Assembly: GCA_040772545.1 (NCBI GenBank)
Contig: JAXGXY010000004.1
Span: forward strand, 25,613-89,612
Source of the DNA: Christensenellales bacterium
Lineage (GTDB): Bacteria; Bacillota; Clostridia; Christensenellales; UBA1431
Reading direction: 5' to 3'
DNA length: 64,000 bases
A program made the position numbers and the translations under genes. The notes under the pieces were generated by a model. That model searched no databases. It worked only from the letters and a program-made list of their open reading frames with translations, and was not told where the DNA came from. Shown in pieces: positions 1,800 to 62,480 of the stretch. Position 1 is the stretch's first letter; every line of letters begins with the position of its first letter.

Positions 1800-2680
1800 G
1801 CGCAAAGCAGCAGCGGCGGCTAGGAAAGGGGCTCCAGGCGCTTATAGGGTCCGAAGAACCCGTATGGGACGAGCGGCAGCCCGGCGAAAAGGGCGTGCGC
1901 CTCATCGACGTCCTGCGCATCGATCCCAACCCCAAGCAGGCGCGCAAACGCTTCGACAAGGAGGCGCTCGAAGGCCTCGCGCAATCCATAGCGATCCACG
2001 GCGTGATCCAGCCGCTGATCGTCGGGGAACAGGGGGAAAGGTACCGCCTGATCGCGGGCGAACGCCGGTGGCGGGCCGCCAAAATGGCGGGCCTGGACAG
2101 GGTGCCCGCCATCGTGACCGACATGGAGGACCGCGCGCAGGTGGAGGTATCGCTGGTGGAGAACCTTCAGCGCGAGGACCTCAACCCGCTCGAAGAGGCG
2201 GCGGGCATCAGATTCCTGATAGAAGAATACGGCCTGACGCAGGAGTCCGCGGCCGAGCGCGTCGGGAAGAGCCGCAGCGCCATAGCGAACGCGCTGAGGC
2301 TTTTGACGCTGCCTTCGCCCGTACAGGACCTGATCTGGACGGGGGAGTTAAGCGCAGGCCACGCGCGCGCCCTGGTCGGGATCGAAGACCAGGATCTTCA
2401 GCAGCGCATGGCAAAAAAGGCGGTCGAAGACGGGCTGTCGGTGCGCGAGATGGAAGCGCTTAAAAGAGACGTGCAGCCCGCGAGGCGCAGGAAGGCCGGC
2501 GATGAGGCGATCCCGCTGGAACTCTTCGAGATGCAGGAGTGCCTGCAAAAAGCGACAGGGATGCGCGTGCGGATCGTGGGAAGCACAAACAGGGGCAGGA
2601 TCACGATAGAATACTACAACAGGGAAGAGATCGAACGGCTCTACGCGATCTTGCAGGACAAAGACGAATGTTTCACGTGA
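1796..2680 (+). CDS. parB: Chromosome partitioning protein ParB/Spo0J
   Basis: MSAKQQRRLGKGLQALI..IDPNPKQARKRFD..LIAGERRWRAAK..VENLQREDLNPLEEA, HTH and C-terminal dimerisation region. The ATG at 1796 overlaps the soj stop (ATGA). The track start at 1727 is an unlikely extension. Confidence 0.95.
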   Translation: MSAKQQRRLGKGLQALIGSEEPVWDERQPGEKGVRLIDVLRIDPNPKQARKRFDKEALEGLAQSIAIHGVIQPLIVGEQGERYRLIAGERRWRAAKMAGLDRVPAIVTDMEDRAQVEVSLVENLQREDLNPLEEAAGIRFLIEEYGLTQESAAERVGKSRSAIANALRLLTLPSPVQDLIWTGELSAGHARALVGIEDQDLQQRMAKKAVEDGLSVREMEALKRDVQPARRRKAGDEAIPLELFEMQECLQKATGMRVRIVGSTNRGRITIEYYNREEIERLYAILQDKDECFT

Positions 2681-2684
2681 AACG
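2669..2684. promoter_or_regulatory. parS: parS centromere site (15/16 match to TGTTTCACGTGAAACA), overlapping the parB stop codon
   Basis: tGTTTCACGTGAAACg. The 14-bp palindromic core is perfect. The parB TGA (2678-2680) lies inside it. Bacillus also carries a parS inside spo0J. Confidence 0.85.
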
Positions 2685-2686
2685 CG

Positions 2687-3110
2687 CCGGAGCAAACTCC
2701 GCACCATCGTCGGAGCAAACTCCGCACCGCTCACCTTCGCGCAAGCGCAAAGGCTCGCTCGCTCCGTTGCTCCTCCTCTTCCCCGCAAAGCTGCGCTTTG
2801 CGGGGAGTTGTTCGGGCGGAGCTTCGTAGGATTGTCCGGGCGAGGCATCGCGGCAAGTTGCTTGGGTGGGGCTTTGCGGGGGTTGTTCGGGATGGGCTTC
2901 GCTCGTCGGAGCAAACTCCGCACCGCTCACCTTCTCGCAAGCGCAAAGGTTCGCTCGCTCCGTTGCTCCTCCTCTTCCCCGCAAAGCTATGCTTTGCGGG
3001 GAGTTGTTCGAGCGGAGCTTCGTAGGATTGTCCGGGCGAGGCATCGAAGCAAGTTGCTTGGGCGGGGCTTCACGGGAGATGTTTAAGCAGGGCTTCGAGT
3101 GATGGTTCGG
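2687..3110 (-). repeat. Type I hairpin-cassette repeats, two tandem ~196-bp units
   Basis: CGGAGCAAACTCCG hairpins occur at 2688, 2711 and 2907. CCCCGCAAAGC-nnn-GCTTTGCGGGG hairpins occur at 2781-2805 and 2977-3001, giving a 196-bp period. The sequence is the reverse complement of modules in 8994-10161. Confidence 0.9.
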
Positions 3111-7511: not shown

Positions 7512-8938
7512 TACGGCTTCCGGATTGGACCATCCCGGTCACCGACGCCTTCGCGCGCGCGGGCGTGGACCTTTACGTCGTGGGCGGCGGTGTGCGAAAC
7601 CCGCTCCTCGGCCTTGGCACCTCGGAGCTCGACATGTGCTCGGGGCTGATGCCCGACGGGCTGACGGAGCTTTTAAGGGACGTACAGGGCGTGCGCGCGA
7701 CGGTGATAAGCCGCGAACTCGGCACGGTCCGCATAGACGTAGAGGGCGCAAAAGGCCGATTCATAGAGCATACGGTACTCAGGACGGAAAACTACGGCGG
7801 GGGCGGGCACCACCGCCCAAATAGGGTAAAAACGGGGGTTTCGATCGAAGAAGACGCCGGCAGGCGCGATTTCACCGTCAACGCGGTCTATTACGACGTG
7901 GCGCGCAAAAAGGTCCTCGACCCCGTGGGCGGCCTCAAAGACATCGAAAACAGGCGGATACGGACCGTGCGGGAAGACACGCTGTTTGATGACGCGCTGC
8001 GCATCCTCAGGATGGTGCGCTTCGCCTGCGAACTCGGCTTCACGATAGAGGAAGCGACGTTTAAGGCCGCGGCCCGAAACGTCGACATGCTCCGCGACAT
8101 AGCGCCCGAGCGCAGGGCGGAGGAGCTCTCCAAAATCCTTTTGAGCGACGCGAAGTACGCCCCGCCCGAACAAGCGGACGGGGCGGCCTGCCTGCGCGGG
8201 CTGGAGCTTCTCAGGGACCTGGGCGCGCTTGAGTTTTTGCTGCCCCACCTCGAGGGGGGACGGGGGTTTTCGCAACCGAACGAATACCACCAGTACGACG
8301 TCCTATACCACAACTTCTATACCTGCCGCCACATGCCCCCGGTGCTCCACCTGCGCCTCGCCGGACTGCTGCACGACGTGGGCAAGCCTGAGGCCTATGA
8401 GCAGGACGGCAATTTCTACGAGCACGCCCGTGTCGGCTCGGCGCTTGCCGCCGGGATGCTGGGCCAGGACGGCCTGCGCTTCAAGAAGGCGCTCGTCGAA
8501 AGGGTATGCCTGCTGATAGAAGAACATATGTTCGACCTTGACGGCAGTGCGAAGGAGACCACGGTGCGGCTGCGTTTCGCGACGCTTGGCCTTCCGGTCG
8601 CGTGCGAACTCCTGTGGCTGCGCCGCGCGGACATACTGGGCTCGCGCGAGGGGAACAGCGCCGAGTTCTTCATCCGCAAATGGGGGAGCGTGCTGCTGGC
8701 GCTGCAAAGGGACGGGACGCCGCCTTCACCGGACGCGCTCGAGATAGGCGGCGAGGACATCATGCGGGTCTGCGGCCTCGGCCCCGGCGAACGGGTCGGC
8801 CTGATAAAAGAAAGGCTCTGGCGGCACTGCGTGTACGACCCGCGCCAGAACACGCGCGAGCGGCTCCTTCGGCGGGCCGTGAGCCTGAACCGTGAACTGC
8901 CGCCCGGCATGACGAAGAAAGCCAAAAAGAAGCGATAA
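7508..8938 (+). CDS. cca: CCA-adding enzyme / poly(A) polymerase-family tRNA nucleotidyltransferase with HD domain
   Basis: VVGGGVRNPLLG, RRDFTVNAVYYD and LLHDVGKP (HD) motifs. The TTG at 7508 overlaps the dapF stop. The track ORF start at 7307 lies inside dapF. Confidence 0.85.
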   Translation: MIRLPDWTIPVTDAFARAGVDLYVVGGGVRNPLLGLGTSELDMCSGLMPDGLTELLRDVQGVRATVISRELGTVRIDVEGAKGRFIEHTVLRTENYGGGGHHRPNRVKTGVSIEEDAGRRDFTVNAVYYDVARKKVLDPVGGLKDIENRRIRTVREDTLFDDALRILRMVRFACELGFTIEEATFKAAARNVDMLRDIAPERRAEELSKILLSDAKYAPPEQADGAACLRGLELLRDLGALEFLLPHLEGGRGFSQPNEYHQYDVLYHNFYTCRHMPPVLHLRLAGLLHDVGKPEAYEQDGNFYEHARVGSALAAGMLGQDGLRFKKALVERVCLLIEEHMFDLDGSAKETTVRLRFATLGLPVACELLWLRRADILGSREGNSAEFFIRKWGSVLLALQRDGTPPSPDALEIGGEDIMRVCGLGPGERVGLIKERLWRHCVYDPRQNTRERLLRRAVSLNRELPPGMTKKAKKKR

Positions 8939-8993
8939 TCGGGGCAACAAACCTCGTTTGCGTTTTGCAGGCCGCCGACAAACACGTCATTGG

Positions 8994-10161
8994 TCGACCT
9001 GTTTTCTATGTGGCGGCAGTATTTGCCGCGCACTCCATGGCAAAGTCCATCCCGAACAACTCCCGCAAAGCCTCGCCCGGACAATCCTACGAAGCCCCGC
9101 CTAAAACAAAACCTACGAAGCCCCGCCCGAACAACTTCCGACGAAGCCTATCCTGAAAAATCCCTGCAAAGCCCTACCAGAATGAACCCCCGCAAAGCGC
9201 AGCTTTGCGGGGAAGAGGAGGAGCAACGGAGCGGTGCGAAGAATCCCCGGAGAGCGCGGAGCGCAAAGGGGATTATGAGCGGAGCGAAGTTTGCTCCGAC
9301 GAGGGAGCGGTGCGAAGAATCCCCGGAGCGCGGAGCGCAAAGGGGATTATGAGCGGAGCGAAGTTTGCTCCGACGAGGGAGCGATGCGAAGAATCCCCGG
9401 AGCGCGGAGCGCAAAGGGGATTTTGAGCGGAGCGAAGTTTGCTCCGACGATGGTGCGAAGTTTGCTCCGACGAGCGAAGCCCAGCCAGAGCAATGCCCGC
9501 AAAGCCCCGCTTGGACAAACCTACGAAGCCCTGCCTAAAACAAAACCTACGAAGTCCCGCCCGAACAACTTCCCGCGAAGCCTATCCTGAAAAATCTCTG
9601 CAAAGCCCTACCAGAATGAATCCCCGCAAAGCGTAGCTTTGCGGGGAAGAGGAGGAGCAACGGAGCGGTGCGAAGAATCCTCGGAGCGCGGAGCGCAAAG
9701 GGGATTATGAGCGGAGCGAAGTTTGCTCCGACGATGGTGCGAAGTTTGCTCCGACGAGCGAAGCCCAGCCAGAGCAATGCCCGCAAAGCCCCGCTTTGAC
9801 AATCCTACGAAGTCCCGCCCGAACAACTTCCCGCGAAGCCTATCCTGAAAAATCTCTGCAAAGCCCTACCAGAATGAATCCCCGCAGAGCGCAGCTTTGC
9901 GGGGAAGAGGAGGAGCAACGGAGCGGTGCGAAGAATCCCCGGAGCGCGAAGCGCAAAGGGGATTATGAGCGGAGCGAAGTTTGCTCCGACGAGGGAGCGG
10001 TGCGAAGAATCCCCGGAGCGCGAAGCGCAAAGGGGATTATGAGCGGAGCGAAGTTTGCTCCGACGAGGGAGCAGTGCGAAGAATCCCCGGAGCGCGAAGC
10101 GCAAAGGGGATTATGAGTGGAGCGAAGTTTACTCCGACGATGGTGCGAAGTTTGCCCGACG
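8994..10161 (+). repeat. Type I hairpin-cassette repeat array (nested tandem repeats)
   Basis: There are three super-units, each with a CCCCGCAAAGC-nnn-GCTTTGCGGGG hairpin (9188-9212, 9622-9646, 9880-9904). These are followed by 3, 1 and 3 copies of a 74-bp unit, starting at 9236/9312/9386, 9669, and 9928/10002/10076. Boundaries are approximate. Confidence 0.9.
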
Positions 10162-10180
10162 CATTGGATAATGCTATAAT
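10152..10180 (+). promoter_or_regulatory. Candidate sigma-A promoter of the SBP gene; its -35 lies in the repeat terminus
   Basis: TTGCCC (10152-10157), 17-nt spacer, perfect TATAAT (10175-10180). GGAGGA RBS and the ATG at 10202 follow. Confidence 0.5.
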
Positions 10181-10201
10181 TTCCTAAACACGGAGGAAAC
10201 C

Positions 10202-11026
10202 ATGGTCGATCTGAAAAACATCGATTTTGTGAGACTATTCAAAACCGGCGGGAAAATACTCATCGCGGCAGTCGTGCTCGTGGTGCTGCTGCTGCTTTTC
10301 GGCGGGCCGGCGGAAGACGCCGGGGCTTCGCGCTTCGAACAGCTCCTGGGGCGCGGCGTGCTCCGGGCTGGCGTGAGCGAGGACATGCCCAAACTGGGCC
10401 TCTATACGAACGGCAGCGTACAGGGCCTGGAAGCGGACCTGGCCAGACATATCGCAAAGGACATCTTCGGCGAGGGAAGCGAACCGATGCTTTTGCCTTA
10501 CAACGAGCAGACGCGGCAGTACGCGCTGGATAACGGGGAGGCCGACCTGCTGATCTGCAGGCTGTCCAAAGCCGATGTCCCCGAGGACACGTACATCTTT
10601 TCGGACCCCTATTTCATCGACGCGGTAAGTTTCATGGCCAGGGACGGGGATACGATGACTCTCGAGGACCTCAACGGGAAAAAAGTCGCCTGTATCTACA
10701 ACGCCAGCGCGCAGGACGAGTTCGTCAGCGAGGTGAAAAAACGCGGGCTGACGCTGCAGGTGGTCGAATACGCGTCCTACCCCGAAGCGGTGGAGGCGCT
10801 GCAAAAAGGCGCCGTCGACGCCTTTGCCGAGCATACCCTCGTGCTCAGCAAATACCTAAAATCCGGGTACACGATGTCCGCCGATCGTTTCGCGCCGCAG
10901 GAACTCTGCGTGGCGGCCCTGCCCGGGGACGAGGAACTGATGCAGTGCGTGCAGGAAACGCTGCGTGCCCTGGAGCAGAGCGGACAGATGGGGGCGCTGA
11001 GGAAGAAATGGGGCCTGCTCGGCTGA
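10202..11026 (+). CDS. Family-3 solute-binding protein (amino-acid-type SBP), membrane-anchored
   Basis: N-terminal TM helix (ILIAAVVLVVLLLLF) followed by an SBP_bac_3-like body (GVLRAGVSEDMPKLG..GLEADLARHIAKDI..GEADLLI..DPYF). No permease or ATPase gene is adjacent. Confidence 0.75.
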   Translation: MVDLKNIDFVRLFKTGGKILIAAVVLVVLLLLFGGPAEDAGASRFEQLLGRGVLRAGVSEDMPKLGLYTNGSVQGLEADLARHIAKDIFGEGSEPMLLPYNEQTRQYALDNGEADLLICRLSKADVPEDTYIFSDPYFIDAVSFMARDGDTMTLEDLNGKKVACIYNASAQDEFVSEVKKRGLTLQVVEYASYPEAVEALQKGAVDAFAEHTLVLSKYLKSGYTMSADRFAPQELCVAALPGDEELMQCVQETLRALEQSGQMGALRKKWGLLG

Positions 11027-11074
11027 CGGTGAAAGCGCCATACTTTGGGAACACTTGGGGTGCAGGAGGAGAAC

Positions 11075-11986
11075 ATGTGCGCAAAGCTGAACCTAGCTTC
11101 AAGCGGCCGGTTCGAGGGAGAGGAAGGCTATACTGACGGCCCCGTGGAGGACGAACTCCTCTCGAGGCTGAGGGCGGGCGAAACGCCGGAGCGAATCATA
11201 GCCGGAGACGACCGTTTCCCCGTGCTCTACCATCTTTCCGAGGAACGCCACAACCTGCTCGGCTGGTTTCCCTTCGAAGAGGATGCCGCGCTGCTCGAGA
11301 TCGGCGCGGGGCCGGGCGCGCTCACCGGGCTGTTCGCCGCGCGCGTCAAAAGGGTGGTGGCGGTGGAACTATCGCGCCGGCGTGCCGATATCAACCTCGC
11401 GCGCAACGGCCGGTTCGACAACCTCGAGATCGTCGTCGGGGACTTTTGCGGGATCGACTGGGAAGAACGCTTCGACTACGTCACCCTCGTCGGCGTGCTC
11501 GAATACGCCGGGAGGTTCGGCGCGGGCGGCGCGGACCCCTACACCGGCTTTCTGCGCTGCGTGCGCGAGCGGCTCCTGCCGGGGGGCAGGCTGGTTTTGG
11601 CCATCGAAAACAGGTTCGGGCTCAAATACTGGGCGGGCGCGAACGAAGACCACCTTGGCGTGCCGTTCGCCGGGCTGGAAGGGTACAAGGACAACGTGGG
11701 CGTGCGCACGTTCTCGCGCGCGGAGCTACAGTCCCTGCTTACCGGCGCGGGTTTTACCGAGGCGCGGTTCTATCTCACGCTCCCCGACTACAAATTCCCC
11801 AGCGAGATCATCGCCGAGGACGCGGCGGACCTGCACGCGCTCGCGCGCGCCGTCCCCTACGGGATGGGGGAATACGCGCACCGTCTCTTCGACGAGGGCA
11901 GGGTGCAGCAGGACCTCGCGCGGCAGGGACTCCTGCCCGGGTACGCGAACGGGTTCCTCGTCGTCGCGAGCGGAGGTGAGGGGTAA
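11075..11986 (+). CDS. Class I SAM-dependent methyltransferase
   Basis: Motif I LLEIGAGPGALTG, VVAVELS and LEIVVGDF. GGAGGAG RBS lies before the ATG at 11075. The stop abuts the next ATG (taaATG). Confidence 0.85.
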   Translation: MCAKLNLASSGRFEGEEGYTDGPVEDELLSRLRAGETPERIIAGDDRFPVLYHLSEERHNLLGWFPFEEDAALLEIGAGPGALTGLFAARVKRVVAVELSRRRADINLARNGRFDNLEIVVGDFCGIDWEERFDYVTLVGVLEYAGRFGAGGADPYTGFLRCVRERLLPGGRLVLAIENRFGLKYWAGANEDHLGVPFAGLEGYKDNVGVRTFSRAELQSLLTGAGFTEARFYLTLPDYKFPSEIIAEDAADLHALARAVPYGMGEYAHRLFDEGRVQQDLARQGLLPGYANGFLVVASGGEG

Positions 11987-14900
11987 ATGCGGGTCCTCTA
12001 TGTTAAGTATTCGACCCTCAGGAAGAGGGAATACCGCATCTGCACGCAGATCGTGGAGCGGGACGGCGCGCGGTTGGTGCGCAAGGTGCCCGCCGTGCCT
12101 GAAGCCCTTGCCCACGTGGAGGCGATGGCGCACAACGCGCGGCGCATGCGCGAGCGGACCGTGGGGCTGACGGTCCCGCCCTGCACGGTGGAGGGCGGCG
12201 CGTTCGAGACGCCCTATGTCGAAGGCGCGGCGCTGGATTGCCTGATTACGGAAGCGGCAAAAACGGGCGGCGCGGGCGGCGTTTGCCGTATCCTGGACGA
12301 TTACCGGGAACTGGTAAGGGCCCAGCCGCGGGTCGAAACCGACCCCGGCGCCTGCCCCGGCTTTGCCCGGTGGTTCGGCGAAAGCGTGGGCAGGGCCGAC
12401 TGCCTCGCGCTGGGGATGGTCGACCTCGTGACCGAGAACATCGTGTGCACGCCCGAAGGAAGCTTCGCCGCCATCGATTACGAATGGCTCTGCGACTGCC
12501 CCGTGCCCGTCGATTACGTCTTCCACCGCGCCGTGCGCCTGCTGTACCTGCACCACCGGGACGTATTAGAGCCCGTGATGACTCCGGGCGAAATGCTCGC
12601 GAGGCTCGGCGTAAGCCCCGCTTCCTCCGCCGCGTTCGAAGCCTGGGACAACAGGATGGACGAGCGCATCCAGGGGGACCCGCGCCTGCTCCCCGTCCCG
12701 CCCCAGTACCTGCGCGACAAGTCCCGGCCCTTCGGCGGGGCGGGCAGGCTCTACTACGACACGGGGGAAGGGTACAGCGAAAACAGGAGCATAGACGCCG
12801 AAGGACCCCTTTACCGGTTCGAACTCCCGCCCGGCACGCGGGTGAGGGGCCTCAGGTTCGACCCCTGCGAGGGCGCGTACTGCGCCGCCGTGATCCGCGA
12901 GGCCTGGGCAGAAACCGACGGCGGGCGCGTCCGCCTGCGGTGCGTCGGCGGGAACGCCGCGCTGAAGGAAGGGGACGCGTACGTCTTTGCGACCAGGGAC
13001 CCGCAACTGCTGTTTAATGCGCCCGCCGGCGCCGTTTTCGCGGTCGGTATCGCGGCGGACGTGCGGCGGCCGGAAGCGGACGAGCTAGAACGGGCGCTGA
13101 AAGCGCAGCAGGAAGAGGCGCAGGCGATAGAGGCTGGTCATGGCCGAAACCGGCCGGCGGCGGAAAAGGGGAACCGGGAGCCCGGCGGGGCGCTCCTTCG
13201 GCCGGCGGCGCGCATCGAGGCGCTGGGCCATGGCCGGTATCGCGCGACGGCCCCCGACCCGCAGTTTTGCATCGGGCGCGGGTACGAGCCGGGCATCCTG
13301 CGCGTGGACTGGGCGGGGGACGCGGACTTCATCCTGCCGCTGAGGCTCTACTACGATACGGGCGAAGGGTTTACGGAAAACGGCTTCTTTAACGTCGGCG
13401 CGCTGGGCGCGGAAGCCAAAAGCGGGCATTGCTACCTCCGCCTCGAAAAAAGGGCGTCGCAGCTCCGCCTAGACCCCGGGGAAGGAACGGGCGATTTTAT
13501 TCTGACCGCTTTTTCGGTGACGCGCCCCGCCCCGCGGAGGCTGAAGCGCGACGCAATAAATGCGTACGCCGAGATGCAGGGCGTTCCTTTAAACAAAGCC
13601 CGCAAAGCGTATTCAAAAGACCCGCGCGCGGCGCTGCAGACGCTCATTGACCAGGGGTGCCCGGAGGTTTACGACCCGGAAAGAGCGTACCGCAGCTGGA
13701 TGCGGTACGTGGAAGGCGAAGCGGCGCCGGCGGGCGCGGAAGGGTCCGTGCGCATCTCGGTCGTGGTGCCGGTGTACGAGACCGGCGAGGCCATGCTCCG
13801 GGAGATGATCGGGTCCGTGCGCGCGCAGAGCCACGGGAACTGGCAGCTCTGCATCGCCGACGGCGGCAGCCGTTCGCCCCACGTGCGAAGGGTCCTCGAG
13901 GAAGCCATGCGGTCCGACGCGCGCGTACGCGTCGCGTTCCTCCCCGAAAACCGGGGCATCGCGGGCAACAGCAACGCGGCGCTGGCCCTGGCCGAAGGCG
14001 AATACGTCGCGCTGCTGGACCACGACGACGTCCTCGTGCCATTCGCCCTTTCCGAGGCGGCCCGCGCGATCGCCGGGCACGACCCCGACATGCTGTATTC
14101 GGACGAGGACAAGCTCACGGCCGACGGGAAGAGGCGGTTCATGCCCCACTTCAAACCGGACTGGGACGCCGAGCTTCTGCGCTCGTGCAACTATGTCGCG
14201 CACCTCCTCGTGGCCAGGCGCGCGCTGGTGGAGGCGGTCGGCGGTTTCCGCGAGGGTTTCGACGGGAGCCAGGACCACGACCTGATCCTCAGGCTCAGCG
14301 AAAAGGCTAATAAGATCGTGCACATCCCCAAAGTGCTCTACCACTGGCGGAGCCACGCGAAATCAACGGCCCTGCATGCTGGCGCGAAGGACTATGCGGC
14401 CGAAGCGAGGCGAAGGGCGGTCGGCGAGCACTGCGCGCGCGCCGGTGTCCCCGCGCGGGTGGAAACAGACGGGCGCTACGGCATCCTGCGCGTCCGTTAT
14501 GAGATCAGGCACCGGCCTTTCGTTTCCGTGGTCATAATTGGCGGTGAGGACGGAGACCTGACGCGCCTGAGCGCGGAGGCCGCCGCGCGCGCCGCAGGCT
14601 GGGACGATTACGAGATCGTCGTGCTTTCACGCCGGACAGGCCTGCCCGCCGGCGACGGGCGCGCGCGCTTCGTGGAATGCGCGGGCCGGGGCCGCAAAGC
14701 CGTGCTTTACGCAGGGGCCGAAGCGGCGAAGGGGAACGTGCTCGTGCTGATGGAGGCCGGCGTCGCGCCGGTTTCCGAAGGCTGGATCGGCGCGCTGTAC
14801 GAGCTTGGTCAGCGGGAGGACGCGGGCGCGGTAGGGTGCCTTCTGCGCTACCCGAACGGGGCCCTGCTGCACGCGGGCGTCGTGCCGGGGTTCATAGGCG

Positions 14901-15247
14901 AAAGCGGGTACGTGGGGGACAGGCGCCCCGCGGACGACCCGGGGTACATGGCGCGCGTCCTCTGCGCGCGCGAGACTGCGGCGGTTTCCGCTGCGTGCGT
15001 GATGGTCGGGAAAAGGACGCTGCTTTATGCCCTTCGCGAAACGGAGGGCGACGACCCGGGCGACGTGGCGCTCTTTGCGGCGGTACGCAGATCGGGCAGA
15101 CGCGTCTATTACACGCCGCACGCCCAATGCGTTTGGCACGGCGTGACGGCGCTCCCCGTACAGGGACCGGCGGACGTCGTCGATGACCCGTTTTACAGCC
15201 CGCATTTTACCCGCAGCGTCGAACCCTACAGGATCAGGGAAGAGTAG
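11987..15247 (+). CDS. Multidomain glycosyltransferase: kinase-like N-terminal domain, two copies of an internal repeat, then a GT2 domain plus a second GT-like domain
   Basis: GT2 signature ISVVVPVYETGEAML..IADGGS..NRGIAGNSNAALALAEGEYVALLDHDD. The N-terminus has an APH/kinase-like IDYEW motif. LYYDTGEG(Y/F)(S/T)EN...LR(F/L)DP.EG is repeated at nt ~12749 and ~13346. Confidence 0.85.
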   Translation: MRVLYVKYSTLRKREYRICTQIVERDGARLVRKVPAVPEALAHVEAMAHNARRMRERTVGLTVPPCTVEGGAFETPYVEGAALDCLITEAAKTGGAGGVCRILDDYRELVRAQPRVETDPGACPGFARWFGESVGRADCLALGMVDLVTENIVCTPEGSFAAIDYEWLCDCPVPVDYVFHRAVRLLYLHHRDVLEPVMTPGEMLARLGVSPASSAAFEAWDNRMDERIQGDPRLLPVPPQYLRDKSRPFGGAGRLYYDTGEGYSENRSIDAEGPLYRFELPPGTRVRGLRFDPCEGAYCAAVIREAWAETDGGRVRLRCVGGNAALKEGDAYVFATRDPQLLFNAPAGAVFAVGIAADVRRPEADELERALKAQQEEAQAIEAGHGRNRPAAEKGNREPGGALLRPAARIEALGHGRYRATAPDPQFCIGRGYEPGILRVDWAGDADFILPLRLYYDTGEGFTENGFFNVGALGAEAKSGHCYLRLEKRASQLRLDPGEGTGDFILTAFSVTRPAPRRLKRDAINAYAEMQGVPLNKARKAYSKDPRAALQTLIDQGCPEVYDPERAYRSWMRYVEGEAAPAGAEGSVRISVVVPVYETGEAMLREMIGSVRAQSHGNWQLCIADGGSRSPHVRRVLEEAMRSDARVRVAFLPENRGIAGNSNAALALAEGEYVALLDHDDVLVPFALSEAARAIAGHDPDMLYSDEDKLTADGKRRFMPHFKPDWDAELLRSCNYVAHLLVARRALVEAVGGFREGFDGSQDHDLILRLSEKANKIVHIPKVLYHWRSHAKSTALHAGAKDYAAEARRRAVGEHCARAGVPARVETDGRYGILRVRYEIRHRPFVSVVIIGGEDGDLTRLSAEAAARAAGWDDYEIVVLSRRTGLPAGDGRARFVECAGRGRKAVLYAGAEAAKGNVLVLMEAGVAPVSEGWIGALYELGQREDAGAVGCLLRYPNGALLHAGVVPGFIGESGYVGDRRPADDPGYMARVLCARETAAVSAACVMVGKRTLLYALRETEGDDPGDVALFAAVRRSGRRVYYTPHAQCVWHGVTALPVQGPADVVDDPFYSPHFTRSVEPYRIREE

Positions 15248-15273
15248 CCGCATGGCATCTCGTTGTCATCGAA

Positions 15274-15611
15274 AAACTCCCGGCTGTGCCGCGGGTTTCA
15301 AAAAAGCTTAAATGCAGGGGGTGTGGGGGATAATCCCCCACTTCCAATCCGATCTGACGACTCGCCGGAGCAAAATTTGCACCGCTCATCTTCGCGCGGA
15401 GCGCAAAGGCTCGCTCGCTGCGCTCCACCCCAAGCGGCAAGCCGCGAGGGGACCCCGGTTGCTCCTCCACTTCCCCACAAAGCTCCGCTTTGAGGGGGCC
15501 CCGGAGGCAGAAAAATGCCACATGGAGCGGCATTAAACCACAAAGGAAACCGTCGACAAGCCTCGAAGGGATTTGTCGAGGGCCAGAAACCCCCGGCTGT
15601 GCCGGGGGTTT
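15274..15611. repeat. Composite repeat: type II element (15299-15586) interrupted by a type I segment (~15362-15508), bracketed by a duplicated 25-bp hairpin
   Basis: AAACTCCCGGCTGTGCCGCGGGTTT (15274-15298) versus AAACCCCCGGCTGTGCCGGGGGTTT (15587-15611) match at 23/25. The inner ends align with the reverse complement of 62264-62425. The middle carries the CGGAGCAAA.. and CCCCACAAAGC..GCTTTGAGGGG modules. Confidence 0.85.
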
Positions 15612-15723
15612 ACGATTAATGGGGAATTGCTGTACCGGAAACAACGAAAACCAATAATGCCGCCGTAGCGGTAGTTCGCACAAGAGGAAGAACCGCCGCA
15701 GACATGCGCCGGATAAAGCCGCT

Positions 15724-16722
15724 TTATTCGACGGTCACGCCGAGATTCGGACGCGCGACGTTGATCCAGGTGTTGCCCGGTTGCAGCGGGACCTTCTTGC
15801 CGTCCGCATCGAAGAACACGGTGGGCGAACCGGCGCTCTCGCGCTCCCACGTTCCCTTAACGCACTTGCCGCCGCTGAGGATCCACGCCTCGCCCGAGCC
15901 GATCAGGCCGATGTTGATGTGTTTCTCGTCGATCATGCTGTGGTTCGCGAACTGCAAGACCACGTTCATGACCTGCACCTGCTCGCCGGTGTTGGCGTCG
16001 ATGAACGGCCGGGTGCCGTTGGAGCGCAGGTATGCGCCCAGCTCTTTGTCGTAGGTGTATATGGTCTTGTTCTCCGCGCCGTTGTAGGGGACGGTGAGCT
16101 TCAGGCCGCTGACGGCGTCCTCGCCCAGCCCTTTTTCGGAATAAAGGAAGGCGTGCGGGGCGGGTTCGTAGTCGTAGGCTTCCCGGTCTTTCCCGACGTC
16201 GGTATAGCAGTTGTGCGGGGCTTTTCTCGAATAATCCCGCCACGTGTATTCTCTGTCGGCGTCTATGTGCTTAATGCCCAGGGAACGGAACTTGACGTAC
16301 ACGTTGGACGCGTTGTTCCTCCCCTGCGGGCCGCCGATGTGCACGAAGAGGCCGTCGTACTCCTTGACGATGTCGAGGAAATAGACGCGCGCGCTGCGCA
16401 CGGGCCCTACCTTCTCGGGGAGCTTGTCGTTGAAGACCGCGATCAGGCGCGGGATACGGCCTTCCGCTTCCACTTCGTACACGATGTCCGCGTCCTGTAT
16501 CCCCGACTGCGGCCTTGCCGCCAAAACGTTGTCGATGGAAACGATCACGGGGAGGTAGGCATCGTTGCCGGGCAGCCCTGTCGTATAGGAAACCGGGCCG
16601 GGCGTCGGCGTGGGGGCAGGCGTTGCTAAGGGAGAGGGGCTGGGCTCGGGCTGGGGTGCGCACCCGAGCAGCAAAGCGGGTATGAGCAACACAAAGACAA
16701 GGAGGGGGAAGAACCTTTTCAT
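15724..16722 (-). CDS. DUF3048-domain lipoprotein (YerB-like)
   Basis: Signal peptide plus lipobox MKRFFPLLVFVLLIPALLLGC, a Pro-rich linker, then LPVIVSIDNVLAARPQSGIQDADIVYEVEAEG, which is typical of DUF3048. The alternative upstream ATG is at 16761. Confidence 0.8.
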   Translation of the reverse strand: MKRFFPLLVFVLLIPALLLGCAPQPEPSPSPLATPAPTPTPGPVSYTTGLPGNDAYLPVIVSIDNVLAARPQSGIQDADIVYEVEAEGRIPRLIAVFNDKLPEKVGPVRSARVYFLDIVKEYDGLFVHIGGPQGRNNASNVYVKFRSLGIKHIDADREYTWRDYSRKAPHNCYTDVGKDREAYDYEPAPHAFLYSEKGLGEDAVSGLKLTVPYNGAENKTIYTYDKELGAYLRSNGTRPFIDANTGEQVQVMNVVLQFANHSMIDEKHINIGLIGSGEAWILSGGKCVKGTWERESAGSPTVFFDADGKKVPLQPGNTWINVARPNLGVTVE

Positions 16723-43224: not shown

Positions 43225-46077
43225 ATGGCGAACACAACGGGGGGGAGCGGCGTGAAGAAACGGGTAGCGACGGTTTTACTCGCATTGCTGGTGATGCTCA
43301 GCGGTTGGACCTTATTGGATCCACAGACGGCATACGCGGCGTTCAATGGAATTATCAAGGTCCGCATATCGCCTTCCAATCACTCGTCCGACATCCGGGT
43401 CATACCCCACGGGAAGTATTTCATCGCCCAGGCGAAAAGCGTACAACTCCTCGACGTCGAGTACAAGGTCCACCGTTCGGGCAGCAACGTGCAGCTCAAG
43501 CACGGCGGCACGGTGCTCTATTCCGGGCCGAAGCTTACTATCACGCGCGCCGCCGGGAACACGGAGGAAAACTTCATCGTGTTTCCCTACAGCCCGACGC
43601 ATAAGACGCGCACGAACTACTACGGGAACATCGAGTTTTCGGTGAATTCGGGCCTGTGCGCGGTGAACCACGTCTACGTCGAAGACTACGTGATGGGCGT
43701 GGCCCCCTACGAGATGAGCCCGAGCTGGCCGGCGCAGGCGCTCAGGGCGCAGGCCGTCTGCGCGCGCAACTACGGCGTTCGGGCGGCGCTCGCGAGCCCC
43801 TCGGGGACCTGGCACCTCGGGGACACGGCAAGTTCGCAGGTCTACAAGGGCGTTCCGGGCGTGAGTTCGTCGGGGACCATCGACTACACCGCGTACAACA
43901 AAGTCAAGAGCGCCGTCGAGGGCACGTCCCGCAAGGTGATGAAGTACGACGGCGCCGTGTTTTCCGCGTACTACTCCGCCTGGAACGGCGGGGAGACGCT
44001 GAACGTACGCGGCTGGACGGGGAACACGTCGTCAGCCTACGGTTATACCGTCGTCAAATCCGACGTGTACGACGACAAGCGCTGCAAGGACGCCTACTGG
44101 ATCACGCGGACCATCAACACATCGCTTTATTCACCGACCGGCAACGACATCAACATGGCCGTGCAGAACATGCTCGTCAAAAAATACAGGGAGCAATACG
44201 GCGTTACGGCTGCCGATGTATACGTCGTGAGCACGACGGGGATCAAAGGGCAGAAGCCGTCCGGCGTGTCCGAAGTTTCGCTCGTCTACGAAAATTTCTA
44301 CTGCGATGTGAGGTTCAATACGGAGTCGGCCACCAAAAAGGTCACGTTCACGGACACTGACCTCAAGCAGGCCCTCGGCATCAGTTCCTCATACATTGCG
44401 TTCAGGATCGAGAATAATTCGGACGGCACGACGACGCTGTACAACGTGCGCTACGGCCACGGGGTGGGGATGAGCCAGCGCGGCGCGCAGCAGATGGCCA
44501 ACGAGGGCATGGGCCACACGGACATCCTGCGCTTCTACTACAACGGGATCACGTTCAGCACGCTTCCCGTTTCTCCGCCTTCGCTGCCGGCCATGCCGGA
44601 CCAGGGGTCGGAAACGGATAAGGAGTACGTCGGGAAAGTTATCAACTGCACCAGCTACGTAAACGTGCGCTCGGGCCCGGGCACCTCCTCGGCGCTGGTC
44701 GGCACGGCCCCGAAAAACGCCATATACCCCGTAAAAAAGGCGTATTATACGAGCGACTGGCATCAGATCGATTACAACGGCAAGACGGCGTACATCCACA
44801 GGGACTATCTCGCGCTGACGCCCGTGCAGCAGGACACGACGGCCAAGGCGGTAGGCAAGGCGACGCGCAGTTCGTACGTGTACGCATCGGCCACCACGAC
44901 GTCCAGCAAGCTGCTGGCGCTGGGAACGGGGAACCTCATGGACATCCTGGACGTTTCCGGCAACTTCTATAAAGTCGTTGCGGCGGGCAAGACGGGTTAT
45001 GTTCCGATTGCCCACGTGACCATCGTATCGGGCAGCGTAGCGGCGCCGACGCCGAAACCGACGCTGAAACCGACGCCGAAGCCGACGCCGAAACCCACGC
45101 CGAAGCCCACGCCGAAGCCCACGCCGAAGCCCACCGCGGCGTCGAAGGCGGTAGCCAAAGCCACGCGCTTCACGTACGTGTACAAGTCCTCCACGACCTC
45201 GTCGGCAAAGCTCCTCCAGCTCGGCCCCGGGAACCTGATGGACGTGCTGGGCACGGCGGGCAAACTCTATAAAGTGGTTGCGGCGGGAAAAACGGGGTAC
45301 GTGCCCATTTCCCACGTGTCGATCGTGTCGGGCAGCATATCGACGCCGAAGCCTACGCCCAAACCGACGCCGAAGCCTACGCCTAAGCCCACCCAGGCGT
45401 CGAAGGCAGTCGCCAAAGCCACGCGCTTCACGTACGTGTACAAGTCCGCTTCGACCTCGTCGACGAAGGTCCTTCAGCTCGGCACCGGAAACCTGATGGA
45501 CGTGCTGGGCACGTCGGGCAGCTACTATAAAGTGGTTGCGGCGGGGAAGACGGGGTACGTTCCGAAATCCCACTTGTCGATCGTATCGGGCAGCATATCG
45601 ACGCCTAAGCCTACGCCAAAACCGACGCCGAAACCCGCCGACACAAAAACAATAGGGAAAGTGGTCAACTGCAACAGCTACGTGAATGTGCGCTCGGGTC
45701 CCGGCACGTCGAAGGCGCTGGTCGGCACGGCCCCGAAGGGCGCGGAATATCCCGTGAAAAAGGCGTTCTATACGAGCAGCTGGCATCAGATCGAATACAA
45801 GGGCAAGACGGCATACATCCACAAGGACTATCTCAAGATTACGACAGCGCCGAAGCCGAAGCCTACCGCGGCGTCCAAAGCCGTGGCCAAAGCCACGCGC
45901 TTCACGTACGTGTACAAGTCCTCCACGACCTCGTCGTCGAAGCTGCTGAAGCTCGGCCCGGGGAACCTGATGGACGTGCTGGGCACGGCGGGCAAACTCT
46001 ATAAAGTGGTTGCGGCAGGCAAGACGGGGTACGTGCCCGTTTCCCACGTGTCGATCGTGTCGGGCAGCGTCAGCTAA
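43225..46077 (+). CDS. Secreted SpoIID/LytB-domain protein with six SH3b-like repeats and (K/T)P linkers
   Basis: Signal-like N-terminus, SpoIID motifs (YVEDYVMGVAPYEM, ALRAQAVCARNYG, YGHGVGMSQRGAQQMA), two NCxSYVNVRSGPGTS SH3b domains, four KATRFTYVYKS...GKTGYVP repeats, and KPTPKPTP linkers. Confidence 0.85.
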   Translation: MANTTGGSGVKKRVATVLLALLVMLSGWTLLDPQTAYAAFNGIIKVRISPSNHSSDIRVIPHGKYFIAQAKSVQLLDVEYKVHRSGSNVQLKHGGTVLYSGPKLTITRAAGNTEENFIVFPYSPTHKTRTNYYGNIEFSVNSGLCAVNHVYVEDYVMGVAPYEMSPSWPAQALRAQAVCARNYGVRAALASPSGTWHLGDTASSQVYKGVPGVSSSGTIDYTAYNKVKSAVEGTSRKVMKYDGAVFSAYYSAWNGGETLNVRGWTGNTSSAYGYTVVKSDVYDDKRCKDAYWITRTINTSLYSPTGNDINMAVQNMLVKKYREQYGVTAADVYVVSTTGIKGQKPSGVSEVSLVYENFYCDVRFNTESATKKVTFTDTDLKQALGISSSYIAFRIENNSDGTTTLYNVRYGHGVGMSQRGAQQMANEGMGHTDILRFYYNGITFSTLPVSPPSLPAMPDQGSETDKEYVGKVINCTSYVNVRSGPGTSSALVGTAPKNAIYPVKKAYYTSDWHQIDYNGKTAYIHRDYLALTPVQQDTTAKAVGKATRSSYVYASATTTSSKLLALGTGNLMDILDVSGNFYKVVAAGKTGYVPIAHVTIVSGSVAAPTPKPTLKPTPKPTPKPTPKPTPKPTPKPTAASKAVAKATRFTYVYKSSTTSSAKLLQLGPGNLMDVLGTAGKLYKVVAAGKTGYVPISHVSIVSGSISTPKPTPKPTPKPTPKPTQASKAVAKATRFTYVYKSASTSSTKVLQLGTGNLMDVLGTSGSYYKVVAAGKTGYVPKSHLSIVSGSISTPKPTPKPTPKPADTKTIGKVVNCNSYVNVRSGPGTSKALVGTAPKGAEYPVKKAFYTSSWHQIEYKGKTAYIHKDYLKITTAPKPKPTAASKAVAKATRFTYVYKSSTTSSSKLLKLGPGNLMDVLGTAGKLYKVVAAGKTGYVPVSHVSIVSGSVS
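44632..46074 (+). repeat. Intragenic domain repeats (near-identical at DNA level)
   Basis: 45139-45335 and 45868-46062 are almost identical nucleotide stretches. The CCGAARCCSACG (KPTP) micro-repeat spans 45049-45132 and recurs at ~45346-45390 and ~45603-45635. Confidence 0.85.
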
Positions 46078-46235
46078 ACCGTGTTGATCCAGTCGAACCG
46101 TCCGAGAAAAGCCTTAGCCGCGTACGCGCCTTTGCCGGCGGGACGACAAAGGACGTCGCCGGGCAATCGGGCAAGACGGCACGCCGGAGGATAAAAAGGC
46201 TCCTGCAACGCGCCGGGTTCTGCCTGGGATTAAAG

Positions 46236-46267
46236 CAAAAAAAAACGGCCACGGGCCGTTTTTTTAT
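46236..46267. terminator. Bidirectional terminator
   Basis: A9 - AACGGCC-acg-GGCCGTT - T7, between the convergent SpoIID-like gene and rsmI. Confidence 0.7.
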
Positions 46268-46313
46268 GTCCGACTGCGGCCGAACGGGGGTACGGGCCCT
46301 TCCCGCCGCGGCT

Positions 46314-47147
46314 TCATTCGTCTTCGAGTTCCAAAAGGCGCCGGTAGAGCGCCCTGCGACTGAGCCCCAGCTCGGCGGCCGCCCGCCGGGCCGCGGAAGG
46401 CTTGTCCGTCCCGCTGTTAAGCAGTTCCGTAAGGAGGGCATCGCGCGTTTCGGCGTCGGCCTGCACGGCGGCGGGCTTCGCTTTCTCGATAACCAGCACG
46501 TACTCCCCGCGCGGGTCCTTTTCTTCGTAGATGCCGGCGAGTTCTTCCGCCGTGCAAAGCAGCGTCTCTTCGTGAAGCTTGGTCAGTTCCCGGCAGCAGC
46601 AGACGCGCCTTTCCGGGTCGGCGTCCGCGATCAAACGAAGCGTATCCTTCAGGCGGTGCGGGCTCTCGTAGAGCACACAGGTCACGGGCTGGTCCATCAG
46701 ACGGCGCACGCGCTCCCCGCGCTTCGCCTTCCCGCGGGGCAAAAAGCCCTCGAACAGGAAACGCGACGCGTCCATCCCCGAAAGGGTGAGCGCGCAGAGC
46801 ACCGCGCTCGGGCCGGGGAGCGAGACCACTTCGACCCCTTCGCGCCGGGCCGCCGCGACCAGATCGGCGCCCGGGTCGGAGATGCAGGGCGTGCCCGCGT
46901 CGCTCACGTACGCCACGGTCTCGCCCGCCCTGATCCGGCGGATGATGGCGCCGATGCCCTCGGCGGCCGAATGCGCGTGGAAGCTGACCAGCGGCTTTTT
47001 CAGCCCGAGGTGGTTTAGAAGCTGCAGGGTGCGGCGCGTGTCCTCGGCCGCGACGGCGTCGGCCGAAGCGAGGGCCTCCCGCGCACGAAGCGTGATGTCG
47101 CCCAGGTTGCCTATGGGGGTGGAAACGAGCATCAGCTTTCCCGGCAC
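46314..47147 (-). CDS. rsmI: 16S rRNA (cytidine1402-2'-O)-methyltransferase
   Basis: LVSTPIGNLGDITLRAREAL, EDTRRT and the tetrapyrrole-methylase fold pattern. Confidence 0.9.
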   Translation of the reverse strand: MPGKLMLVSTPIGNLGDITLRAREALASADAVAAEDTRRTLQLLNHLGLKKPLVSFHAHSAAEGIGAIIRRIRAGETVAYVSDAGTPCISDPGADLVAAARREGVEVVSLPGPSAVLCALTLSGMDASRFLFEGFLPRGKAKRGERVRRLMDQPVTCVLYESPHRLKDTLRLIADADPERRVCCCRELTKLHEETLLCTAEELAGIYEEKDPRGEYVLVIEKAKPAAVQADAETRDALLTELLNSGTDKPSAARRAAAELGLSRRALYRRLLELEDE

Positions 47148-47988: not shown

Positions 47989-48276
47989 GGTGCTAGCACC
48001 CGGCCAGACTATAAAACAAGCCGCGCCGCCGGGGTCGAGCGTTGTTTTGTCAAATAGAAGCTTTACCCGGAAGATTTCCACAGCGCTTTACCCAGGCAAA
48101 TCCTTCAAAACCTTGCACGAATGAATCCCACAGGGCCTCACCTGAACAAACCGCACAAAGCGAAGCTTTGGGCGGAAGAGGAGGAGCAACGGAGCGGTGC
48201 GAGGAACCCCCGACGCGCGCAGCGCATAGGGGGTTACGGGCGAAGCGGAGTTTGCTCCGACGTGGGTGCTAGCACC
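47989..48276 (+). repeat. Type I repeat element (48001-48264) bracketed by a duplicated 12-bp palindrome
   Basis: GGTGCTAGCACC occurs at 47989-48000 and again at 48265-48276. The interior carries a degenerate H1 hairpin (48151-48175), AAGAGGAGGAGCAACGGAGCG and the terminal CGGAGTTTGCTCCG (48246-48259). Confidence 0.85.
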
Positions 48277-62219: not shown

Positions 62220-62263
62220 ATTGGCAAAAACCGGGTCGCACCATCGTATGCTTCGGGCACGTT

Positions 62264-62425
62264 AGGCCGTCGACAAACCCTTCGGGATTTGTCGACGGTT
62301 TTCTGTGCGGTTAAAATGCCGCTATTAGGCGGCATTTTAACCGCCAATCTGATGCACATGTCGTCAGATTGGATTGAAAGCGGGGGATTGCATCCCCCAC
62401 ACCCCCCTGCTAGTAGGCTTTTTTG
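62264..62425. repeat. Type II hairpin-cassette element (four consecutive perfect hairpins); the first hairpin doubles as the spo0A terminator
   Basis: Stems at 62267-62277/62288-62298 (11 bp, then TTTT), 62307-62322/62329-62344 (16 bp), 62346-62352/62364-62370 (7 bp) and 62382-62388/62392-62398 (7 bp). The reverse complement aligns with 15299-15361 and ~15510-15586. Confidence 0.85.
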
Positions 62426-62433
62426 ACAAGCTG

Positions 62434-62462
62434 GGCGGCCGTCATTATAACGGCCGCCTTTT
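62434..62462 (+). terminator. Additional plus-strand terminator hairpin
   Basis: GGCGGCCGT-cattata-ACGGCCGCC followed by TTTT. Confidence 0.55.
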
Positions 62463-62480
62463 CGTATTCTCGTATTCCGT

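Follow-up and report, generated by a model that had tools for sequence, protein, structure and literature searches.

How an intergenic spacer comes to hold several hairpin-forming repeats, with one lying inside another, is the question raised by a 338-bp feature in the window, as the whole analysed stretch of 64,000 nt is called here. The host is a high-GC, spore-forming Clostridia bacterium, in which spo0A and parB, together with a parS site at 2669-2684, are present. The feature forms the core of a 476-nt spacer, which begins at the stop codon of a glycosyltransferase gene and separates it from a convergent DUF3048 gene; the true start of the latter is probably internal, which would give a protein of 332 aa, and its homologues are 330-336 aa long. 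Other loci are numbered with L, and three of them recur throughout: L079 and L080, which represent the same species in independent JGI assemblies (99.76% and 98.6% identity, respectively) and whose arrangement is base-for-base equal to that of the window, and L073, a 258-kb JGI contig found by a metagenome scan with the hairpin sequence, which has 92-93.5% nucleotide identity and is syntenic over window positions 7734-16046. The parts of the locus and the reference copy of one of its repeats, type II, are given below.

11987-15247, plus strand: family 2 glycosyltransferase gene, 1086 aa (open reading frame list; Pfam PF00535, E 9e-26)
15274-15298, unstranded: left hairpin copy AAACTCCCGGCTGTGCCGCGGGTTT, a 25-nt palindrome with one C-C mismatch and one G-U pair, followed on the minus strand by TTTTT
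15299-15322, plus strand: type II 5′ leader CAAAAAAGCTTAAATGCA and invariant GGGGGT run (pairwise and family alignments); the leader is common to the copy at 62 kb (TGTCAAAAAAGCCTACTAGCA)
15323-15341, plus strand: type II hairpin H1, GTGGGGGA-TAA-TCCCCCAC (family alignments), deleted in L073
15348-15361, plus strand: 5′ arm of H2, TCCGATCTGACGAC, with loop and 3′ arm absent (comparison with the 62 kb copy and L073)
15362-15511, plus strand: one type I unit of 150 nt within the H2 loop, replacing 21 nt of type II and absent from L073
15512-15537, plus strand: type II hairpin H3, AAAATGCCAC-ATGG-AGCGGCATTAAA, with one A-C mismatch (alignments and L073 comparison)
15538-15586, plus strand: type II linker CCACAAAGGAAA and hairpin H4, CCGTCGACAAGCC..GGGATTTGTCGAGGG, then CCAG (alignments and fold)
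15587-15611, unstranded: right hairpin copy AAACCCCCGGCTGTGCCGGGGGTTT, whose 10-bp stem is perfect and whose sequence does not vary among the window, L079, L080 and L073
15612-15723, unstranded: distal spacer up to the DUF3048 stop codon, which a small hairpin adjoins; kept in L073, L079 and L080
15724-16761, minus strand: DUF3048 gene, convergent with the glycosyltransferase gene (Pfam PF11258 and PF17479)
62261-62433, minus strand: intact reference type II element with leader and H1-H4 (131 bits by the covariance model; fold z −9.2)

The first-pass annotation had read the feature as a type II element whose two halves, contiguous in a copy at 62264-62425, are held apart by about 150 bp of type I repeat. 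Pairwise alignment to the reverse complement of 62264-62425 recovered both halves, 15298-15361 at ~86% and 15512-15584 at ~80% identity. Simple contiguity did not hold: 21 nt of the 62 kb copy, ATGTGCATCAGATTGGCGGTT, which span the loop and 3′ arm of H2 and the junction, lack a counterpart at 15 kb. The segment between the halves is indeed type I: its 150 nt match type I arrays at 89-90%, with insert positions 5-58 matching 2711-2763 at 89%, and positions 97-137 matching both 2766-2805 and the array at 9.2-9.9 kb at 90%. This unit is composed of module a (CGCCGGAGCAAAATTTGC), module b, an extra 38-nt hairpin module (15420-15457) that recurs in the L094 array, and module c, a long hairpin (CCCCACAAAGC..GCTTTGAGGGG). 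Had the middle segment been common to most type II copies, it would belong to the element; among the 15 members of our covariance model, only the 15 kb copy has type I in H2. In the distal spacer, a weak stretch resembling H3 plus linker (~15655-15700) is only suggestive of a second type II remnant, an equal local-alignment score being reached in 7 of 500 shuffles.

Comparison of alleles gave the order of events. The L073 spacer has the two hairpins and type II but lacks type I; its order is left hairpin, leader TGTCAAAAAGCTTAA, a 42-nt deletion removing H1, an intact H2 (CTGACGAC ATGTG CGTCAGATCGG), CGGTT, H3, H4 and a perfect right hairpin; where L073 reads CTGACGAC-ATGTGCGTCAGATCGG-CGGTT-AAAATGCC, the window reads CTGACGAC-(150 nt of type I)-AAAATGCC. 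Because H2 is uninterrupted in L073 and equals the type II family consensus, the type I unit at 15 kb is, as judged from these alleles, a derived insertion into the H2 loop. The earlier proposal that one family had inserted into the other is thereby upheld, with type I as the incoming one. On the same comparison, the insertion dates to after the split from the L073 lineage (~7% nucleotide divergence) and before the divergence of L079 and L080, in both of which it is fixed. Since 21 nt of type II were lost, the event was an insertion plus deletion and not a clean insertion. Neither a target duplication nor a terminal inverted repeat was found at the 15 kb junctions, and the start (TCGCCGGAGC) and end (CCGGAGGCAGA) of the insert are not inverted with respect to each other; a possible microhomology can be read between CCGGAGCAAAAT at the type I start and CCGGAGGCAGAAAAAT at the right junction.

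In L001 and L002 the spacer is different altogether. L001, whose flanking genes have 97.6% nucleotide identity, has 184 nt of unrelated sequence as its spacer, with breakpoints within 1 nt of both stop codons, and the spacer of L002 (69% amino acid identity) is likewise unrelated to that of the window; both spacers were compared with the other loci of this analysis and no matches were found. The L001 sequence stops 230 nt beyond the gene. Three spacer states can therefore be set side by side: unrelated (L001 and L002), type II without type I (L073), and type II plus type I (window, L079 and L080). Repeats do break assemblies, and that end of L001 close to the gene might raise the suspicion of a chimeric repeat join, in which the nested arrangement would be an assembly or alignment artefact. 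Such an origin is refuted, and we give it practically no credence, by the identical 476-nt spacer in three independent assemblies (window, L079 and L080) and the related pre-insertion form in a fourth.

The loop of H2 has received foreign sequence elsewhere. In L066, an unrelated 64-nt insert occupies the same loop with both arms retained, and the H2 loop has thus been struck more than once, independently in two genera (the window lineage and that of L066). Because of these two independent hits, hairpin loops are seen as recurrent insertion points. The case also shows that repeat families insert into each other's hairpins.

To place the inserted unit among its relatives, the type I loci of the window are listed here, the fourth being the unit at 15 kb given above.

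2681-3100, plus strand: type I tandem array of 2 units of 196 nt, beginning right at the parS palindrome, which the parB stop codon overlaps
9040-10160, minus strand: large type I array of 1.1 kb with 74-nt and 258/434-nt periodicities, ~660 nt longer than the L073 array
47989-48276, minus strand: type I singleton with extra DNA (48001-48264) between direct GGTGCTAGCACC palindromes at 47989-48000 and 48265-48276

Type I consists of hairpin modules in mosaic combination, namely a (CGYCGGAGCAAAYT), b, alternative central hairpins, c (a long CCCCGCAAAGC hairpin) and d. It occurs at four loci in the 64 kb and in relatives down to 87% protein identity; its arrays vary by whole units among the window, L073 and L094, and the site of the 9040-10160 array is occupied in the relatives L002 and L003 by an FGGY kinase gene. 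Type I is a modular repeat specific to this lineage, and tandem arrays of it occur as well.

The 48 kb locus offers an empty-site allele. The orthologous 131-nt spacer of L096 has a single GGTGCTAGCACC with matching left and right flanks, and in the window 264 nt, including a type I unit, lie between the two palindromes. As ACTATAAAA recurs after the left palindrome copy, the duplication at this site probably reaches ~37 nt.

These loci bear on whether type I might be a non-autonomous, MITE-like transposon that is moved in trans by a transposase and prefers hairpins or palindromes as targets, a reading that we consider improbable. Its dispersal over four loci in 64 kb and into relatives would suit such an element, as would the position of its 'a' end (CGYCGGAGCAAA), which adjoins a palindrome in three places: parS (2669-2684), the GGTGCTAGCACC copy at 48265, and the H2 arm (15348-15361). 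Nevertheless, neither terminal inverted repeats nor a target duplication of constant length was found at the type I loci in the window, the 15 kb junction involves a 21-nt deletion, the units are mosaics of interchangeable modules that grow mostly as tandem arrays, and a search of viral contigs with the type I pattern gave no match. Recombination or template switching would fit type I better than transposition because the units are mosaic, inverted repeats and a constant duplication are missing, sequence was deleted, and microhomology is possible.

We then turn to the host repeat, type II. When GTDB species genomes were scanned for the H1 motif, 63 loci came back, and in Bacillota/Clostridia MAGs the matches cover the full element. 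These MAGs and their loci are as follows.

Betzabe_MAG021: L018, L046 and L049
OH_HFB_122: L058, with two copies
ZNE14_Bin7: L014, plus L064 with two copies
OH_CBB_215: L060
OH_SBB_106: L032
OH_HFB_328: L066
Feifaniaceae MAG: L063
Oscillospiraceae MAG: L025

Type II is an element of ~155-175 nt, consisting of a leader and four hairpins (H1-H4), and is present in at least eight Clostridia/Bacillota MAGs. RNAalifold applied to a MAFFT alignment of 8 copies returned H1-H4 and a possible closing stem (GGGGGT/TAACC), with 18 covarying pairs. In the alignment of the 15 members of the covariance model R1, which is itself fitted to that model, 95.1% of the cells are paired and compensatory changes occur at 34 of 51 pairs; none of 500 shuffles reached this level, and slid controls were ~40% paired. 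Type II thus shows conserved structure with compensatory changes in independent sequences, by which a structured RNA is recognized. The closing stem would possibly turn H1-H3 into a four-way junction in the predicted fold; covariation does not support this stem because it is invariant in the copies compared. Several unpaired stretches, GGGGGTGT, TTTTAACC and CAGAAA, are also invariant across genera, and this conservation of unpaired nucleotides exceeds the expectation for a neutral repeat.

In approximately 12 of the 15 members, the copy lies in a spacer 10-100 nt past the stop codon of a co-oriented gene, and copies are often followed by another hairpin; as a rule, a terminator comes on the far side of the element from that stop codon. 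On the antisense strand, H4 and the conserved linker CAGAAAA read as a stem followed by TTTTCTG, and the terminator scan flagged the case in L064; at 15 kb, the H4 stem on the minus strand is followed by TTTCCTTTG and is terminator-like. The reference copy at 62 kb stands within the 3′ region of a TrpB-like PALP gene, its antisense H4 plus TTTTCTG facing the stop codon of spo0A. The genes adjoining type II copies are functionally unrelated, two copies from one genome differ as much as copies from different genera, and the element ends, TGTCAAAAAAGC and GTCGACGGCC, are not inverted.

These features could also be those of a genuine structured non-coding RNA family, either a 3′-UTR element or a small RNA, that folds into a four-way junction and has a sequence-specific partner; the 62 kb copy would be its working member and the 15 kb copy a pseudogene disabled by type I. 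We regard this as possible, though on balance doubtful. It draws on the strong covariation across four helices, the unpaired stretches invariant across genera, the orientation bias with respect to the upstream gene, and a promoter-like site close to consensus (TTGACA-17-TATGAT) that immediately precedes the partial copy in L049. Divergence within genomes equal to that across genera speaks for old paralogues over a recent burst of transposition, and the expansion tolerated by the H2 loop in L066 resembles the variable regions of structured RNAs. Against it, G-U and A-C counts in H2-H4 (10 vs 11) carry no strand signal that would tell RNA from DNA folding, the neighbouring genes share no function, copies have been lost or are decaying without replacement (L073, L075 and L076), and the head-to-head pair in L064 has neither an upstream co-oriented gene nor a promoter-like site. 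No known family accounts for the element either: with the 4227 models of Rfam 15, the window gave no match at the gathering score and 16 loci gave only tRNAs, the scores nearest to type II being 16.1 bits for Clostridiales-2 (RF02937; gathering score 58.6) and, on L064, 26 bits for sraL (RF01408; 39). A literature search on the H1 sequence and Clostridiales-2 returned nothing useful.

Searches for type II in phage and plasmid collections, and for the H2 pattern in viral contigs, gave no match. Many phyla share the opening motif, GGGGGTGTGGGGGAT..ATCCCCC, which is also present in phage contigs and giant-virus MAGs. An origin of the H1 motif as an IS200/IS605-type subterminal hairpin or a TnpB guide RNA was considered for the SAR324 copies and rejected, the upstream frame being acyl-CoA synthetase-like and the repeat short and intergenic.

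Orthologous sites show how single copies come and go. After the PALP gene, type II is present in the window and in L074 (98.8% identity) and absent from L075 (88% amino acid identity) and L076 (83%), both of which have plain terminators there. Homology between L074 and the window ends exactly after H4, where L074 continues with TTTTCTTTATG and a beta-lactamase-family gene in place of spo0A. In L094, a divergent type II-like copy (37 bits) separates the stop codon of rsmI from its terminator, and the same site in the window and L093 has the terminator only. These comparisons indicate that individual type II copies are gained, lost and left to decay.

The copy at 15 kb is in the last of these states. 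Its halves score 22 and 27 bits with R1, and the L073 orthologue scores 61 bits, vs 131 for the 62 kb copy; the lesions differ by lineage, being the 42-nt deletion of H1 in L073 and the disrupted H2 plus a broken H4 pair in the window. Because the two lineages were damaged independently, their sequences argue that the 15 kb copy is a decaying relic, free of selection.

The remaining component is the pair of 25-nt hairpins. Alignment confirmed that 15274-15298 and 15587-15611 are direct repeats with 23 of 25 positions identical, and they are the only copies in the 64 kb at up to three mismatches, where shuffles lead one to expect none. Their folding energies are −21.5 kcal/mol (z −4.8) for the right copy and −11 kcal/mol (z −1.8) for the left. 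The left copy, of whose 3′ arm L073 has lost 3 nt, is decaying. The hairpin had been taken for a bidirectional terminator serving the two convergent genes. For the right copy this is plausible, as it is stable and conserved in the window, L079, L080 and L073, with tails of TTTACGATT on the plus and TTTCTGG on the minus strand, and it is likely a working terminator usable from both sides. A consensus terminator scan of 14800-16200 qualified neither copy, because their T-tracts are short. At 15 kb, the right hairpin alone looks to be constrained, probably as a terminator.

With the L073 sequence, the repeat can be read as ~29 nt (GAAAC to TTT(T)AC); extension into the flanks gave nothing significant past 25 nt, or ~29 nt when the L073 TTTTAC is used. 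Since the duplication is already present, and decaying, in L073, it is older than the type I insertion. The first-pass picture of hairpins flanking the nested insertion as one event therefore does not stand, and flanking repeats are not a trait of the type II family: the 25-nt repeat occurs only at the 15 kb locus and its orthologue L073, and at 11 other copies the longest word shared by the flanks is 5-7 nt, the level of shuffles. Nor did an empty site with a single hairpin between the glycosyltransferase and DUF3048 genes, as had been predicted for relatives, turn up among the alleles recovered (L001, L002, L073, L079 and L080).

Two origins of the pair were weighed. In the unrelated contig L067, an identical 25-mer stands 3′ of an H4-like hairpin (GTCGACAAAGCC..GGCTTTGTCGAC), because of which the right hairpin may be a 3′ module of the type II element rather than target sequence. 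By analogy with the palindromes of the 48 kb locus, we weakly favour the alternative that the duplication arose when type II arrived, although the 11 other copies without flanking duplication speak against such a scar as the general rule.

In a third and quite unlikely scenario, the whole hairpin-to-hairpin block would be a single cassette, integrated at a hairpin that it also carries, so that the two copies would be attL/attR-like products of site-specific or folded-strand recombination. The exact conservation of the right hairpin and the same 25-mer after an H4-like hairpin in L067 could be accommodated in this way. The hairpin copies can also pair with each other, direct repeats of a palindrome being inverted repeats as well, and do so in the minimum-energy fold, and it is exactly where the 62 kb copy ends on its 3′ side that the window and L074 cease to be syntenic. 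Nevertheless, the 62 kb copy and 10 others are not flanked by a hairpin pair, and no recombinase gene was found next to any type II copy seen. At 48 kb, the palindrome is already present in the empty site of L096 and so derives from the target, and the duplication seems to exceed the palindrome.

Taken together, stepwise assembly of the spacer, with type II as a 3′-region repeat and type I copied in by recombination or template switching, is the explanation that we hold, as a whole, to be somewhat more probable than its negation. Three kinds of intergenic repeat that form hairpins would have been added to the spacer one after another, and it would not be one mobile unit. Type II, which we take to be a structured 3′-region repeat of the REP/BIME/ERIC/BOX kind that would be co-transcribed with the upstream gene, lies 3′ of the glycosyltransferase gene with a GC-rich hairpin copy on either side, and the 25-29-nt duplication of that hairpin would be the scar of its arrival, a long, palindrome-bearing direct duplication as at 48 kb. 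The apical loop of H2 would then have received one type I unit, copied from an array of that repeat, and the loop and the 3′ arm were destroyed; the route would presumably be hairpin-provoked illegitimate recombination or template switching during replication, and a transposase making fixed target duplications would have had no part in it.

A bolder reading would go beyond this stepwise assembly and take type II (GGGGGUGU, H1-H3 closed by GGGGGU/UAACC, and H4) as an undescribed class of structured RNA in the 3′ regions of Clostridia genes, with a dedicated partner that is protein or RNA, add a structure-directed insertion of repeats that duplicates the palindrome, and make of the opening motif a shared recognition module; in our estimate this is rather unlikely. 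The palindrome duplications measure 25-29 nt at 15 kb and at least 12 nt at 48 kb. To our knowledge, structure-directed insertion that duplicates a whole palindrome is used by no known bacterial transposition system, and if these duplications are regular, they would point to an undescribed, hairpin-directed insertion process in spore-forming Firmicutes. The case provides a dated, allele-supported example of how a bacterial intergenic spacer is constructed. It also adds a covarying, cross-genus element of four hairpins that is absent from Rfam, for which the R1 model can be used in annotating Clostridia MAGs.

Compared with known systems, both repeats have partial counterparts. The BIMEs and REP clusters of Enterobacteria and Pseudomonas are likewise extragenic hairpin repeats, often at 3′ ends or between convergent genes, with mosaic combinations of motifs, co-transcription with neighbours, and a role as hot spots of insertion and rearrangement. 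They differ in that a REP is a 35-nt palindrome, whereas type II has ~155 nt, four different hairpins and a possible junction; the GTAG head is absent here, the host is a Clostridia lineage, and no RAYT gene was seen among those ORFs of the window that were scanned. REP/BIME sequences are recognized as imperfect palindromes of 20-40 nt with a GTAG-type head and many copies, and the hairpin of the spacer, found only twice in 64 kb, is not of this description. ERIC/IRU sequences of Enterobacteria are transcribed, intergenic imperfect palindromes of ~127 nt, of which enlarged forms carry extra blocks at fixed internal sites; these forms are the closest precedent for a repeat within a repeat at a preferred spot. 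There is no sequence relation, however, and ERIC is one long hairpin, whereas the block inserted here belongs to a separate, array-forming family.

For type I, a good analogue is the BOX element of Streptococcus pneumoniae (boxA-boxB(n)-boxC), a modular Firmicute intergenic repeat with variable tandem internal modules, stable predicted RNA folds and no transposase of its own, although type I is unrelated in sequence, forms arrays of up to 1.1 kb and has a less fixed module order. The bcr1 repeats of the Bacillus cereus group and the Correia elements of Neisseria resemble type II as structured 3′-region repeats of ~150 nt that are transcribed with their neighbours and can terminate transcription, but they have terminal inverted repeats and fixed short duplications (TTTAT and TA), neither of which is found here; by the same two features, terminal inverted repeats and a constant short target duplication, type I and type II fall outside the MITEs. 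Clostridiales-2 (RF02937) shares the opening GGGGGUG followed by a G5/C5 hairpin, while the rest of its 82-nt model does not fit, and type II is not a member. As an analogy only, the repeat duplications of CRISPR spacer integration and of casposons, in which the inserted DNA lies between two copies of a segment, often a palindrome, that is tens of base pairs long, would cover the duplications of 25-29 nt and ~12-37 nt seen here; in contrast, there are no cas genes and no array at these sites, and the inserted repeat DNA measures 264-290 nt. The feature is accordingly a case of intergenic repeat turnover like that of REP, BIME, ERIC and BOX elements, taking place in uncultured Clostridia, with type I and type II as new repeats of that sort.

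Comparison of the 15 kb locus with L001, from a strain whose flanking genes are 97.6% identical, found a 184-nt spacer (L001 2603-2786) wholly unrelated to the window spacer (15248-15723), with each of the two breakpoints lying no more than 1 nt from a stop codon and no extra divergence in the flanking sequence compared beside them. In the distal part of the window spacer, past the right copy of the 25-nt hairpin, positions 15655-15700 resemble type II H3 plus linker (AATGCCGCC..AGCGGTAGTT..CGCACAAGAGGAAGAACCGCCG), a likeness whose score was equalled in 7 of 500 shuffles, and this segment may be the leftover of a second type II copy.

A second insert between duplicated palindromes was located at 48 kb:

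Window 48001-48264: type I singleton plus extra DNA, with direct copies of the palindrome GGTGCTAGCACC at both sides (47989-48276 overall).

The empty site, having one palindrome GGTGCTAGCACC and flanks matching those of the window, was found in Betzabe_MAG021 (L096 2370-2500), and in L094 the same palindromes enclose two type I units. L093 was a further locus compared at this site, alongside L096 and L094. The palindrome duplication may extend to approximately 37 nt.

Type II copies were also examined at other loci. When the intact copy at 62 kb (window 62219-62481) was compared with L074 4386-4680 of strain GCA_002329665.1 (98.8% identity), synteny was observed to stop exactly at the type II 3′ end; in L074, H4 is followed by TTTTCTTTATG and the convergent neighbour is a beta-lactamase-family gene, while in the window it is spo0A. 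Type II here is the mark of a rearrangement breakpoint. In another MAG (L066 2464-2681), a 64-nt insert containing two small hairpins occupies the H2 apical loop of a type II copy, the very position at which type I is inserted in the window; the two insertions are independent. At L064 7197-7541, a head-to-head pair of type II copies separated by 50 nt is enclosed by convergent genes, and the antisense H4 face of each copy, which is terminator-like, points at the nearest gene. Among three rsmI loci compared, an element that resembles type II but is divergent (37 bits) was present only in the 87% lineage (L094 4105-4400), between the rsmI stop codon and the rsmI terminator; the other two were window 46230-46315, a bare terminator without the element, and L093 4115-4200.

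Repeats were also identified inside an ORF of the window:

Window 44630-46080: repeats with a 12-nt period (CGACGCCGAAAC/GCC type), together with repeats of 258 nt, within a 950-aa ORF (43225-46077).

This ORF probably encodes a repetitive Gly-rich protein.

The opening hairpin motif of type II, GGGGGTGTGGGGGAT(0-4)ATCCCCC, occurs far above chance given its 22 specified bases, and was found in unrelated short repeats (L004-L066 and L082-L092; e.g. L008, L006, L009, L048, and L088). SAR324 carries approximately 35 copies, many located at contig ends, a giant-virus MAG has the motif in tandem repeats, and other carriers include Alphaproteobacteria, Dehalococcoidia, Bacillus fungorum, CPR, Actinomycetota, and phage contigs. 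At L048 7288-7560, a tRNA gene precedes an H1-motif repeat, after which the 3′ end of the tRNA (GGTTCGAATCCAGATAGGCCCAC) occurs a second time; this arrangement looks like a small integrated remnant. The exact 25-mer AAACCCCCGGCTGTGCCGGGGGTTT is likewise present in unrelated metagenome contigs (L067 1-150, L068, and L070/L072), in one case after an H4-like hairpin and in two at the centre of a longer, perfect palindrome.

The 1.1-kb type I array (window 9040-10160), whose counterpart in the syntenic relative L073 is approximately 660 nt shorter, stands where a gene was lost: the corresponding position in more distant relatives holds an FGGY sugar kinase gene (L002 6853-8361; L003 6574-8082), broken into fragments in L003. 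Another type I array begins with the last bases of a parS site, TGTTTCACGTGAAACG (window 2669-2684), which overlaps the parB stop codon and matches 15 of 16 positions of the B. subtilis consensus.
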